DNA of 64,000 bases. Origin: Eledone cirrhosa (Eukaryota). The notes below the pieces were generated by a model that saw nothing but the letters and a program-made list of their open reading frames with translations, was not told the origin of the DNA and ran no database searches. Position numbers and translations under genes: made by a program. The stretch lies in the NCBI GenBank assembly GCA_964016885.1, contig OZ024742.1:268026001-268090000 (forward strand). The letters are read 5' to 3'. Shown piece by piece: positions 4,765 through 47,873 of this stretch (the first letter of the stretch is position 1; the number at the start of each line of letters is the position of its first letter).

Positions 4765-6862
4765 TAAGAATCAAAGAACTGTTCAAAACATAATTGTGCT
4801 TACAGCTGTTTCCTCCAAACCGAGGTTTGGATTCTTCGGAGCAATTTATTAATGCATGGACAGTTATATGACCTCCTTTTCAGCCAAGAGACATACCGAT
4901 ACATATGCAAATATTGTGGGTCAACATTCATTACAGAATTTAGAGTGGCAGTACACACATCGAGATTACATTCATATTAAGAGGTACAATCAAAAATCAA
5001 AAATACAGGTTAAAATACAACATGAAGATAAGCGGTTATATAGTGCAAATGTTATATGTGTGGCAAGCATGTGCGTCTTGTTTATATAGTGTGGCAGAGA
5101 TATATGTGTGGTAGAGGCACTTAGGTAGGTAAACAAGAGTGTTAGGTTGGTAGATCTGGTGGCAAATTCTTTATATGATTGATATAGTATGTGTGTGGAG
5201 AAATGTTATAAGCATTAAAAATAGTGCAAGCATTAAAAGTGTTAAAAGTATTGGAGATGCACAGCGAAGGGATGTCAAGTATTTCATGTACTTCGACATT
5301 TTCATGGTCAGGGGAGTGTATTTTTCGATTATATGCCCCTCACATAAACCACGACAATTCGATTTTGAGCGTTTGACAATACAGTTGGAGAATCGTAGTC
5401 TGAAGTTCTTTAGTTCAATACAGGAGGCTGTTACGTTTCGAGAAACGACATTGAATACCACCCGGAAGTGTGTGTGTGGCTAAGGGGAGTTAATGCATGC
5501 GGGGAGGTAACTCCGGGGTTTCTATATCTAGCTATTAAAATGTGTCACAATATAGACCCTAATTTCTATGGTGATGCGCATCCTCCAAAAAATGTTTAAA
5601 GCATAAAGTGTATTAACTATAGAGTAGTTTAATTAAGTTATGCTGAAGGTGTTCATATTATTATGGTGGATTAACCCCCATCGTAAGGTGCCACAAATGG
5701 ATATTATAGATGATGAGCGAGGATTCTAAATTAATGATCTCTGTGGTTGTAGTCTACTCATAGGACCAGGCGCGGTGATTGCAGGATTGCTTCAGGACCC
5801 AATGATCTCTGGTAAGTTCTGGGTCATCGCTTGCTACATTGGATGTCGAAAGATAATCATCTCCAGGCTGGCCAGAGGTCAATCCGCAGTCCTCACGACC
5901 CCTCTCTGACCGCCAGATCATCCATATATGTACAACCCGCACGCCAGTTGCAATGCATTCACTCACTGCGCTCAGCATCCTGGTCCTACTGCTCAACAGC
6001 GTTACTAGATTAAATCGTTTTTCATCTGTCTAAGGAAGGTGCTGCCTCCGCACAACACTATCAAACCGATCAATTCATGCTTAAATTACCTATAGAGCGG
6101 TGTAGTGCAGTTCAAGTGGGTGGATGTTGTCACACCTGACGTAGAGGTATAAATGGGTATTCTCCCTGCGAAGGGTTCCAGAGGGATGTCGTTGTTTGTG
6201 TTATATCAGATCAGTTAGTGTTGGGTATGTAGTATAAGGTGTGCCTCTGGTGTTTGATGCTAGATGTGGTGTTAGGTTCCAGTCCGACATTGCTATATAT
6301 TGGGCTTAAAGTTTTGGAAGGAATGTCTGAAGCGGTGCTGGCAAGTTGCAAACACCTCAGATTTTTTGTTAAGTAGGTTCCGGTTGGAGAAGATAATATT
6401 GTGTGTCTCTAGTATACAGAGGTTACAAAATTTATTAGGTGGTTTGTACGGGGTCGCGCTGCCTATCACTTCCCATTTGAGTGTGTATGGTTTATTTTTA
6501 GTTTTTAGATAGTGTATGTAGCTAGAAAGTGAGGTGGAGTTTGCTAGGCTGTGCTTTTTGAACGAGTGGATGTGCGAATTATATCTGATTTTGAAGCAGT
6601 TAGAAGTGGAGCCTACATAGGCTTCTGAAGAGTTGCTAGTCGTGACGGTGCATGAGTATATGATATCCTTGGTTAGGCATTTTTTATCTAAAGGGCAGGT
6701 TCTATTAGCTCTACAGTTACAATTATCCTGTGCATTAGTCTGCTGGTTATAATGCAGTGCGGAAGTCTGTGTGGTAGCTATAGGATTTTGGGTGTTCGGG
6801 TTGTCAACCCTGGTGTTATTACTTATACTAGTGTTATTTCTATTGTTACTGCCGTTGCTAAT
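4765..6862 (-). mobile_element. 5'-truncated Naiad-like PLE: open GIY-YIG frame and long 3' UTR
   Basis: ORF 6293..7033 (its N-terminus reads through TA repeat): CNCRANRTCPLDKKCLTKDIIYSCTV..AYVGST..FKIRYNSH..CNLCILE..LLNKKSE..CQH. Bounded by (TA)n. Confidence 0.88.
4797..4843 (-). ncRNA. Minimal type I HHR with CCGAAGA core
   Basis: tgct CCGAAGA a-tccaaac-ctcg-gtttgga-g GAAAC AGCT GTA agca. Helices I, II and III all pair; the loop is palindromic; the cleavage triplet is GUA. Confidence 0.75.
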
Positions 6863-11106: not shown

Positions 11107-12548
11107 TAGCTTTAAGCTAAACTCCTCAACAAAGATTGGGTTATATGTTAGTATAAACCCAATTTAAGTGTTTGGGGTGCTAACTATATGTATTTTGTGG
11201 AAAGCCAGTTGTATTATTTTATGAGATATAATTAAAGTTAAAATATATCTCTCTTTCCAAACAATTGTTTCATTATAAGTTTTCTACAAATTGGGAGAAA
11301 GTTTCCATTTTATGTAGAAGCCTAACATATATTCATGTAAGAATATATTTAGGTGGGCACTTATAAATCTTCAGAGGAAGCCCATTAAACTTTGATATAA
11401 GAAAAAATTCTTACCGCAGTTAAAAATCTTGTCTGCTAAGCTGCTCCTTCACGCATCGAATGACCGCCAAATTTGAAATTCCAGCAGTCTTTTGACTGAG
11501 GAAGTATCATAGCGTCACGAAGCGATAAAGGGAGACAACCACGAATCACGAGAAAAGAAAATAATATACACGTGGGTTAAATAGTTTTTTCTAAAACATT
11601 ATCAATCCAGCGTGTTAAGAACTCAATTGATATTAAACAAATAAATAAATGTATGCGTGTATTAATTACACACGCATATAGATATTTTCTTAGGCTAAAA
11701 ACAGAAGTGATACCTAAATAACAAACCGCATCTCATAACTGTAGTAAATACGGAAAGTTACGCTTTAAAAGGCATTTGGGAATGTAAATCTCTGCCCAAA
11801 TTAAGAGTAAAATATTTAATACATGCAGGTTAATTAGTTATTTCAAAACCATTATCAATTCCGCGTGTTAAGAACTCAATTAATTTTAAAAAATGAATGT
11901 ATGCATGTAATTATTTACACACGCAATATATATTTTCTTAGGCTAAAAACAGAGAAGTGACAACTAAAAAACCCACCATATCTCATAACAGTAATAATAC
12001 GGAAAGTCATGTTTATAAGATACCTGGAAATAAATACTTCTGGCCAAATCAAGAGTAAAATATTTAATACAATAACAGAGATAGCTTAAAGCTAAACTCC
12101 GACTGGTAACCATCTCACTCAACAAACATTAGGTTATATGTTAGTATAAACCCAATTTAAGTGTTTGGGGTGCTAACTATATGTATTTTGTGGAACGCCA
12201 GTTGTATTATTTTATGAGATATAATGAAAGTTAAAATATATCTCTCTTTCCAAACAATTGTTTCATTATAAGTTTTCTACAAATTGGGAGAAAGTTTCCA
12301 GTTCATGTAGAAGCCTAACATATATTCATATAAGAATATATTTAGGTGGGCACTTATAAATCTTCAGTGGAAACCCATTAAACTTTGATATAAGAAAAAA
12401 TTCTTACCGCAGTTAAAAATCGTGTCTGCTAAGCTGCTCCTTCACGCATCGAATGACCGCCAAATTTGAAATTCCAGCAGTCTTTTGACTGAGGAAGTAT
12501 CATGGCGTCACGAAGCGGGAAAGGGAGACAACCACGAATCACGAGAAA
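11107..12548 (-). mobile_element. Non-coding retrozyme-like element: two ~450-bp direct repeats 993 bp apart, each with an HHR
   Basis: 11107-11555 matches 12082-12548. The spacer holds a ~250-bp tandem duplication. No credible ORF; (TA)n flanks. Confidence 0.75.
12247..12373 (-). ncRNA. Type I HHR with a large branched helix-II insertion (second copy at 11254-11380)
   Basis: tttcca CTGAAGA t-ttataagt...acttataa-t GAAAC AATT GTT tggaaa. Confidence 0.8.
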
Positions 12549-12851: not shown

Positions 12852-12894
12852 ACGCTGTAATACTTTCAAGCTTATTAGCTATCGTCAGCAACGT
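12852..12894 (-). ncRNA. Minimal type I HHR in a ~345-bp element (12735-13080)
   Basis: acgttg CTGACGA t-agct-aata-agct-t GAAA G ta TTA cagcgt; 6-bp helix I. A related end fragment lies at ~19698-19758. Confidence 0.72.
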
Positions 12895-13266: not shown

Positions 13267-13342
<76 letters not shown>

Positions 13343-13347
<5 letters not shown>

Positions 13348-14376
13348 TATGAAGAGAGAAGAAACATTTAGATATAATTAGTAATAAAATGTATCATACC
13401 TAAACTGCTTCTAGATTCCTCGACAACGTAGTTTCGTGGCATAAACAAAAACAATATATCATAAAGATATAGAGTCCTTGCGAGGTCTGCCGACTTATCA
13501 AGAGGATACCTCATTTTACTAGTCTCAAGAACGCGTCTACACGACGTGAGAAAGAAACCCAAAAGGCGGAGGGGGAGATAGTCACGCGATATAACGGTCG
13601 AGAAACAGAGCTAAGCCTCTTATAACCCCGAAGAAAATACCACGGAGGCGGAGGGGGTATTTATATCGAAGCCGTAGAAGAGGTGGTGAAGGAGGAGAGA
13701 AGTATGAGTAATGGAAGCTTTCCATGCGGATGCATTCATGTATATGTGTGTGTCCGCATGTATCTGTGTGTTTCTAAATATATTGTTAATAACTCCCTCT
13801 GGTCGAGCAATCTTTGAAGTGTGGGGACAGCTGGAAAGCTTCCATTACTCATACTTCTCGCCTCCTTCACCACCTCTTCTACGGCTTCGATATAAATACC
13901 CCCTCCGCCTCCGTGGTATTTTCTTGGGGGTTATAAGAGGCTTAGCTCTGTTGCTCGAACGTTATATCGCGTGACTATCTCCCCCTCCGCCTTTTGGGAT
14001 TCTTTCTCACGTCGTGTAGACGCGTTCTTGAGACTAGTAAAATGAGGTATCCTCTTGATAAGTCGGCAGACCTCGCAAGGACTCTATATCTTTATGATAT
14101 ATTGTTTTTGTTTATGCCACGAAACTACGTAGTCGAGGAATCTAGAAGCAGTTTAGGTATGATACATTTTATTACTAATTATATCTAAATGTTTCTTCTC
14201 TCTTCATAATGTATTTTTAACTCTGATACTGGTTCAGTCTAGTTCAACTGGATTGGTCTGTCCCAGTCATTCATTGAGCAACATCGGTGAAGTTGGCACC
14301 CTTAACTCACAGTTGGGTGCGGATGCATTCATGTATATGTGTGTGTCCGCATGTATCTGTGTGTTTCTAAATATAT

Positions 14377-15925: not shown

Positions 15926-16039
15926 ATGTATATATATGTATATATATATACATATATATAGTTACAACTATACATAGATATATATATATACATATATATA
16001 CATATATACATCTATACATATATATATATATATATATAT

Positions 16040-16201
16040 GAAAAAGTAAGACTCCGACGGATGAGCTCAGAAACAGCTGTCGAAACGGCTTGAGCTCTGC
16101 CGTCGGGGTCTTACTTTTTCCTATTTCCCACCCTACTACGCTAAATATTGAGTACACCGGTGCGTTATGGTCCAATTGGTTCCTTACCACAATTCCTTTG
16201 T
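16040..16201 (+). mobile_element. Terminal pLTR fragment of the same family with a short inverted 5' piece
   Basis: gtaagactccgacgg..gagctc pairs with gagctc..ccgtcggggtcttac. The remainder is the reverse complement of 6921-7045. Confidence 0.75.
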
Positions 16202-16887: not shown

Positions 16888-17389
16888 ATACATACACAAG
16901 CACAATAACAACAAACACATATAAACACACACTAGTCACCCAATCATGAACACACATCAAACAAAACACTATACACACACGCAAACGCATGCGCAAAGAA
17001 GACAAATAAAATGAACAAACAAACAAATAAATAAATAAATATATAGCCAGACTAAATAAAAATGGCGTAGACATACAATGCAACGGGAGGAAACAATAGC
17101 ACCACTGACGATGTTGCAGATGTACAACGAAAGAACTCTGATAAACTATATATATGTGTTTGTGTCTATATTGTATCTGTATTATTTTTGACCGCCGGTC
17201 AGTCAATGGCAACATTGAGGACCGAATAAATTAGATTACCGATATAAAAGACACAGAAGCGAAAAGCGAAAACCAACCAAACAGTGAGTGTGTTCTGTTA
17301 TTAATTCTGGCAATATTACACAAATATGACCCACCCCAAGTATAACAATATTTGTTTCGACACACGATTTCATATAAAAAACCTCGCAA

Positions 17390-42535: not shown

Positions 42536-42621
42536 ATACATATATATATATATATACAGATATAACGTACACTTCTTCTAGCGTTCCTTTAAATAAATAA
42601 ATATATAAAGACTGGAAGAAA

Positions 42622-42687
<66 letters not shown>

Positions 42688-42938
42688 TTGCTTCCAGTCT
42701 TTATATAATTATTTATTTATATATATATATATATATAGTTAAATAATAAACAACATAAGATAATTATTTCATTTACCAGTGGTTTCTTGAGTGGTTGAGT
42801 GTGTGTATGTTTAGGTTCTGGATAATTATCTATATATTTTTCCGCTAAATCCTTTTTGCCCGTATTTTCAGCCTCAATTTCATATTTCCTAAATTTTGTT
42901 TTCAAATCCATATTTAATAAAAACACAATGTTATTTAT

Positions 42939-47679: not shown

Positions 47680-47873
47680 AAGTTTAAGGACCCCGACGGC
47701 TGAGCTCCGGCCGTTTCGACAGCTAGGTCCGAACGTTCGGATCTACCTGTCGAAACGGCCGGAGCTCTGCCATCGGGGTCTTGAATCTTTTCATATTACC
47801 CACTCTACTACCCCCCCAAGTATCGAGTATTCTGGTGCGTTATGGTCCACCTGGTATCTTACCACACCCTCTT

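Follow-up and report, generated by a model that had tools for sequence, protein, structure and literature searches.

The 64,000-nt stretch of Eledone cirrhosa DNA analyzed here, referred to as the window, carries at 11107..12548 on the minus strand two direct repeats, each with a hammerhead-like core into which almost 100 nt are inserted at helix II. The locus raises the question of what kind of mobile element spreads such a ribozyme, and whether the repeats are those of an LTR element, as a sequence-only reading had suggested. Our analysis makes it likely that the insertion is a 5′-truncated copy of an abundant, non-coding 993-nt tandem unit bearing a type I hammerhead motif with a conserved branched helix II, and that it represents a non-autonomous Penelope-like element (PLE) whose RNA is self-cleaved and probably circularized before reverse transcription. 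Such an element is known in kind, as an animal non-LTR retrozyme or non-autonomous PLE, and is new in the architecture of its ribozyme.

Layout of the insertion and fold of its hammerhead motif

The insertion lies between (TA)n tracts and comprises ~1.4 turns of the unit, truncated at its 5′ end at 12548; no ORF of at least 120 codons was found inside it. The 993-nt unit has a GC content of 31% and is composed of a segment A of ~490 nt, which contains the ribozyme, and two internal segments of ~250 nt, B1 (11809..12071) and B2 (11558..11823), which are 80% identical to each other. The two repeats of the window copy are 97% identical over 431 nt and enclose a middle of ~560 nt. The hammerhead motif is present at 12247..12373 (copy 1, type I) and at 11254..11380 (copy 2), the core of copy 2 (11374-11368) lying 993 nt beyond that of copy 1, which is the spacing proposed earlier. 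All of these features are on the minus strand, the sequence-only reading having given no strand.

In copy 1, CUGAAGA (12367-12361) and GAAAC (12264-12260) form the core, helix I consists of 6 bp (12373-12368 with 12252-12247), and helix III is palindromic with the loop AAUU, the triplet GUU (12255-12253) placing the predicted cut between 12253 and 12252. The helix II domain spans 96 nt (12265..12360) and includes a U.U opposition at its base (12360/12265), an 8-bp closing helix (12359-12352 with 12273-12266), and the hairpins IIa (12346-12314) and IIb (12312-12275). The ~96 nt between CUGAAGA and GAAA, the perfect closing helix, the two hairpins, the palindromic AATT loop, and the 6-bp helix I had all been described from the letters, and each of them is found; folded alone, the 96-nt insert forms a three-way junction with both hairpins (−24.2 kcal/mol). 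The weakening of helix I noted for copy 2 is also real, its first pair being U.U, and the cut of this copy is predicted between 11260 and 11259. That these features are present beyond chance was confirmed, because the core with the start of helix II has at least 1,506 exact matches in the 3.0-Gb source genome against 0 for the reversed control, and because the free position of the core varies. The motif has the type I hammerhead core CUGANGA...GAAA...NUH, with the free position 7 occupied by A in 42 cases, U in 27, and C in 7. Position 17 is U in 83/83, and GUU is a weak cleavage triplet.

Conservation of the fold was assessed in 69 motifs from several subfamilies, namely the two window copies and 67 kept after thinning of 84 distinct motifs; these 84 had been chosen by an intact-core pattern, so the invariance of the core in this alignment is due to that choice. 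Pairing was found in 92.5% of 2,759 cells, against 33-48% in slid controls, helices I, II, and III being paired at 82.6%, 97.1%, and 100%, each with two-sided changes. The closing helix, on whose conservation among copies the sequence-only reading depended, is 97% paired across the 69 copies, and covariation over genomic copies, then proposed as a check, appears as compensatory changes in all five helices of the ribozyme. Two-sided changes affect 11 of 40 pairs (helix I, 1; closing helix, 2; hairpin IIa, 6; hairpin IIb, 1; loop III, 1). For example, a pair of helix I is UA in 45 motifs and CG in 21, one of the closing helix is UA in 44 and AU in 17, and one of loop III is GC in 39 and AU in 28; AAUU is replaced in this loop by GAUC with the palindrome kept, and the GAUC form has 372 matches in the genome. 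The percentage paired and the covariation score were exceeded in 0 of 500 shuffles, and 11 two-sided pairs were reached in 99 of the 500, the two-sided changes representing few subfamily events. In copies picked by their 3′ end alone, the core varies in 1.2% of cells (12/1,042) versus 3.7% for the whole unit.

The unconstrained minimum-energy fold is not the ribozyme for either 151-nt region, and the z scores (−1.33 and −1.89) are unremarkable. In copy 1, an alternative GGG(C/U):GCCC pairing is 1.7 kcal/mol more stable than the ribozyme fold; the possible pseudoknot or inhibitory pairing of UGGG(C/U) (12377-12373) with GCCCA (12351-12347) is conserved, being 89% paired, with 0 two-sided changes, so that covariation gives it no support. 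In copy 2, helix I is not formed in the predicted fold even with the core held unpaired. No hammerhead was among the 130 Rfam matches in the window at E ≤ 1 or among the 8 local matches at E ≤ 10. Helix III consists of 2 bp plus the palindrome and hence is stable only as a dimer. The geometry of such a dimer suggests that each core would cut the site of its partner, and the helix I defect of copy 2 would thus impair cleavage at 12253 in the window locus. We regard the motif as a type I hammerhead with predicted self-cleavage, and the genomic 5′ ends described below suggest, as an indirect sign, that cleavage occurs.

Ends of the family and the template for reverse transcription

In a first search of 30 loci, all but the window copy and locus L010 (28/30) had their 3′ end at unit position 486-493 with (TA)n behind it; copies in these 30 loci were 340-2,608 nt long, up to 2.6 units. 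The fixed end corresponds to 12060..12063 in the window, ~190 nt past the cut, and is the putative start of reverse transcription. The window copy reads through it into the next unit and has an atypical 3′ end (11107..11130), where it carries an 18-nt deletion and stops ~19 nt short of the family end. The fixed 3′ end sits in the descending arm of a long predicted stem-loop (12040-12130, minus strand), which needs the first bases of segment B and may be a protein-binding or initiation signal. (TA)n 3′ flanks were also met in loci picked without TA selection, indicating a (TA)n target preference; target duplications are unreadable in such flanks. Other copies of the family continue into more units on either side and have one fixed 3′ end and scattered 5′ ends, and the two repeats of the window copy are therefore the overlap of a partial tandem, so the earlier term LTR-like describes an appearance only. 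The fixed internal 3′ end, the 5′ truncation, and partial tandems forming pseudo-LTRs are all as in PLEs. Inverted 5′ copies were seen in 0 of 100 young loci and as one pair (L352/L353) among 69 older loci, and a second head-to-head inverted pair of the family was listed in a separate genome search. Older subfamilies have a single B segment and units of ~690-730 nt, the oldest being 71% identical to the window over the ribozyme region.

The 5′ ends were mapped in the first 100 of 305 copies that carry an exact match to a 30-nt tag of the 3′ end plus TA (the young sample) and in 70 of 653 copies of older subfamilies. In the young sample, 87 copies were at risk of ending in the 17 nt 3′ of the predicted cut (12236..12252 in the window), and 18 of them do so (1.8 expected, P = 1.6e-13); L323 and L324 have common flanks and could represent a single event among the 18. 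The same zone one unit further takes 5 of 20 ends (0.4 expected), and the 27 nt 5′ of the cut take 0 of 69 (2.2 expected). The 17-nt zone was fixed after viewing the young sample, and the older sample is therefore an independent test; there, 15 of 60 end in the zone (2.1 expected, P = 1.9e-9) and 2 of 5 one unit further. No mapped copy has its 5′ end exactly at cut+1, the nearest being at +3 to +5. As evidence of cleavage this excess of 5′ ends is indirect and genomic, and it agrees with a circular template. Because the element has no ORF of at least 120 codons, its closing helix is 97% paired in the 69 copies, and its 5′ ends pile up by the cut, the sequence-only reading of a ~1-kb non-coding retrozyme with an unusual ribozyme architecture is supported, its LTR-like part excepted.

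The explanation that we favor is that transcripts with two motifs would fold a dimeric hammerhead via the palindromic helix III, which would release a monomer of ~990 nt, some monomers then being ligated. A Penelope-type RT/GIY-YIG protein acting in trans would open (TA)n DNA with a nick and start synthesis at the fixed internal site. Roughly a fifth of the passes would stop at the cut, with the end trimmed to nearby TA or GA microhomology, and the remaining passes would run through a seamless junction, either halting once back at the start or continuing into another round; further rounds of copying would create the LTR look-alike.

Several observations bear on whether the template is a circle. 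Ends are also enriched at one full turn, both in young copies (6/30; 0.6 expected) and in older ones (4/12; 0.4 expected), and at read-through junctions, found in 99 young loci, the length is intact in 73/73. Units were compared in 35 loci in which at least 120 nt are present twice, one pair of these loci being the same place: in 34 of the 35, the units of one locus differ less than the between-locus median, and in 17 they are the closest of all, several loci of a smaller 19-locus comparison being at or above the between-locus median. Besides one duplicate locus, unit differences shared between loci were limited to two locus pairs, with two sites each. Folded as a circle, the unit has a z score of −4.9 against 25 shuffles (antisense, −3.6). 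Together, these observations agree with one monomer having been copied repeatedly. The circle step itself we rate a little above an even chance, because a constant stop rate is also expected of linear multimers cleaved in part, and because a stop on the second pass fits a plain covalent circle poorly.

The same element might, on the other hand, have an active ribozyme and no circle, the templates being linear multimers that are partly cut or linear monomers copied with end-to-end template jumps, which we hold to be unlikely. The stop rate is similar on the first and second pass (18/87 and 5/20), as independent partial cleavage gives, and unprocessed RNA was the main in vitro substrate of the anole PLE (PMC11167929). 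Young tandem source loci would likewise yield near-identical units, although differences between units are almost never common to several loci; the view of source arrays rests on the first 100 matches listed per pattern, and long arrays are possible beyond these. Linear copying only shortens units, yet multi-turn copies occur in every subfamily examined, and the one-full-turn excess is seen in two age groups, whereas the absence of indels in 73/73 junctions argues against jumping.

A further explanation, which we consider improbable, dispenses with cleavage in vivo, the 5′ ends reflecting a transcription start or stalling of reverse transcription at the folded domain with the help of TA microhomology. 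It would agree with a ribozyme that is not the minimum-energy fold, with the poor in vitro cleavage of PLE hammerheads (PMC4209133), and with the position of most pile-up ends, which lie at cut+12 in a TA run. Nine other TA runs in the unit, one of them longer, nevertheless show no excess (6 ends in 733 passages), which excludes TA microhomology alone as the cause, and ends also occur inside the 3′ strand of helix I (+3 to +6) and in older subfamilies that lack this TA run. The lower variation of the core relative to the unit (1.2% versus 3.7%) and the double change that preserves the palindrome of loop III also speak against it.

Relation to known hammerhead elements

The closest systems are animal non-LTR retrozymes (Cervera and de la Pena 2020, PMC7229834; Li, Clavereau and Pollet 2026, bioRxiv 10.64898/2026.07.22.740005). 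They are likewise non-coding, low-GC tandem units, each with a type I hammerhead; their axolotl motifs share the palindromic loop III and the U.U at the helix II base with the window family, and mobilization by PLEs has been proposed for them, as it is here. Their RNAs include circles (PMC7229834). They differ in unit size, typically 150-450 nt and 51-972 nt in the 2026 survey, compared with 993 nt here (older, ~690-730 nt), and in having a short hairpin as helix II where the window family has a 96-nt three-way junction. Unlike these retrozymes, the window family, known here from genome sequence alone, takes the form of dispersed partial tandems with a fixed 3′ end. Counting against our favored explanation, eight of nine Xenopus dimers failed to cleave in vitro (bioRxiv 10.64898/2026.07.22.740005).

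Hydra-clade PLEs also insert at (TA)n (Craig et al. 2021, PMC8557442), and many of the hammerheads in File S2 of that paper have a U.U at the helix II base, a palindromic AC...GU helix III, and often U at the cleavage position, as here. The window family differs from Hydra-clade elements in having no ORF and in its 96-nt domain, loop 2 being 3-10 nt in Hydra and ~35 nt at its longest in the whole File S2 table. This paper describes the role of the hammerhead in PLEs as unclear. The anole Poseidon element PAc (Frangieh et al. 2024, PMC11167929) resembles the window family in its AT-rich targets and in that its reverse transcription begins at a fixed internal position downstream of the hammerhead. 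PAc, on the other hand, is autonomous, has a small hammerhead, and shows no RNA-seq ends at its cut site, whereas genomic 5′ ends of the window family cluster by the cut. In vitro, PAc, the one PLE that has been reconstituted, did not depend on its hammerhead, which counts against our favored explanation. A natural core split by a large insertion is also found in the discontinuous Clec2 hammerhead (PMC6155905, PMC6765202), which is of type III with an insertion in helix I and belongs to a single-copy mammalian 3′ UTR, whereas the window family has a structured helix II insertion and is mobile.

Plant LTR retrozymes, as covered in the 2026 preprint and PMC7229834, share with the window copy a ~1-kb non-coding unit between two hammerheads but are of type III and have true LTRs, a primer-binding site, a polypurine tract, and 4-bp target duplications, whereas here the ribozyme is of type I and there are no true LTRs. 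A true plant-like LTR retrozyme mobilized by an LTR retrotransposon has a negligible chance of being the right description, for although ~430-nt direct repeats flank a ~560-nt middle in the window copy taken alone, these repeats are tandem-unit overlap, their boundary differs at the 5′ end of each copy, and the ribozyme is of type I.

The palindromic helix III, the U.U at the helix II base, dimeric cleavage, retrozyme circles, and the link to PLEs are already known. A branched helix II of ~100 nt or a pile-up of 5′ ends at a PLE hammerhead was not described in the mostly open-access literature surveyed, and such motifs may have been reported elsewhere. With its 96-nt branched helix II, the motif widens the range of natural hammerhead architectures and would escape standard searches. 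The dispersed copies, thousands in number and sharing one fixed start, constitute a natural run-off assay, in which 5′ ends mark the predicted cut and one full turn. Cleavage in vivo and the circular-template model become directly testable, and the counting test can be used in any genome with such families.

Large helix II motifs in the genome and the search for a partner

A loose pattern with 80-108 nt in helix II gave 3,701 matches versus 108 in the control. The loci examined contained 164 distinct motifs with inserts of 49-98 nt, of which 149 belong to the window family, the others forming three small multi-copy groups and four singletons; further large-helix-II groups, with inserts of 86-116 nt, were seen in other loci. 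Sequence-unrelated families share the large helix II, including one in the 3′ UTR of a Hydra-type RT/GIY-YIG element. For example, an unrelated family with 382 matches is found in L451 ~750 nt downstream of an endonuclease remnant, and among 30 loci with an L451-type remnant, 12 contain the 3′ core at a distance of up to 1.5 kb, both halves being present around 72-82 nt in 7. The 84-aa remnant had no match in a homology search. The 576-aa ORF of L457 contains YRDD, CxCX5C, CxxC, and CxH, marks that section 11 of PMC8557442 assigns to the Hydra clade. It has 138 relatives at E ≤ 1e-20, the named ones including cephalopod and sea cucumber relatives; no Pfam family was found for it, and its clade therefore rests on the motifs.

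The Hydra-type family and the window family share 16/16 nt at the 3′ core, and the similarity of their helices II is weak (2/7 at 10/300 shuffles or better). Of 301 window-family loci, 0 have a Hydra endonuclease remnant upstream that runs into the copy without an intervening TA break. No autonomous element with the 3′ end of the family was found in the loci searched, namely these 301, 50 GIY-YIG loci, 30 Hydra-type loci, and 20 others, which sample the genome. Judged from the sequences, the Hydra clade would be the best candidate partner because of its ribozyme signature and (TA)n targets. In the Hydra-associated family of L421-L450, the 3′ end lies at either ~cut+60 or ~cut+220, and several inverted pairs stand head to head, much as in the PLE "tail" with its two starts.

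The genome also contains RT/GIY-YIG elements of another sort, whose linker is CX2-5CxxC (Neptune/Nematis-like). This linker is found in the open RT+GIY-YIG frames of L151 (938 codons), L152 (844 codons), and L153 (1,096 codons), and L152-type 3′ UTRs exceed 1 kb. The RT/GIY-YIG ORF of L201, upstream of a diverged copy, was rejected as a partner, being a separate element with its own small hammerhead and TA boundary, and large-helix-II motifs near ORFs in L152, L158, and L204 are separate TA-flanked insertions. The reverse transcriptases beside L203 and L206 score as LINE-like, and the one at L206 is accompanied by an AP endonuclease. The endonuclease remnant that follows L184 is found at that locus only, and the weak similarity of segment B to L031, L038, and L050 reflects chance in AT-rich sequence.

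These observations allow a broader proposal, which we put forward tentatively. The genome may hold an undescribed hammerhead class in which helix II is a structured domain of 50-115 nt, missed by Rfam and short-loop descriptors and spread across many Penelope-type families; insertion ends would then record germline self-cleavage and rolling-circle reverse transcription of ribozyme-made circles, and the domain would gate cleavage, perhaps via a GGGC:GCCC switch. If so, such motifs could explain some PLEs reported without a hammerhead or with half a core.

Additional motifs and repeats were seen along the way. L152 contains at 5810-6719 a second non-coding tandem family (459-nt unit, about two turns, TA-flanked), whose hammerhead has a 50-nt helix II. 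A short TA-flanked insertion in L158 (1940-2080, minus strand) has a hammerhead motif with a 116-nt helix II and a GAUC loop, and sequence related to it occurs in L111, L128, L135, L142, and L205. In the window, hammerhead-like small cores in repeated families were picked by eye on the plus strand at 17105, 19236, 23318, 24993, 25560, 47985, 48578, 59891, and 63198 and on the minus strand at 12888, 18850, 22932, 24277, and 60386, those at 12888 and 60386 having passed a helix filter. The 19236-type motif is found in the 3′ UTR of a GIY-YIG element (L204, L040) and the 17105-type motif in L201. The window also contains at 13337-14219 an inverted repeat with 388-nt arms, 98% complementary and 107 nt apart, which resembles head-to-head PLE insertions. 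Long near-perfect hairpins at 15969-16118, 42609-42700, and 47702-47766, which matched unrelated Rfam models below threshold, are probably short foldback insertions.
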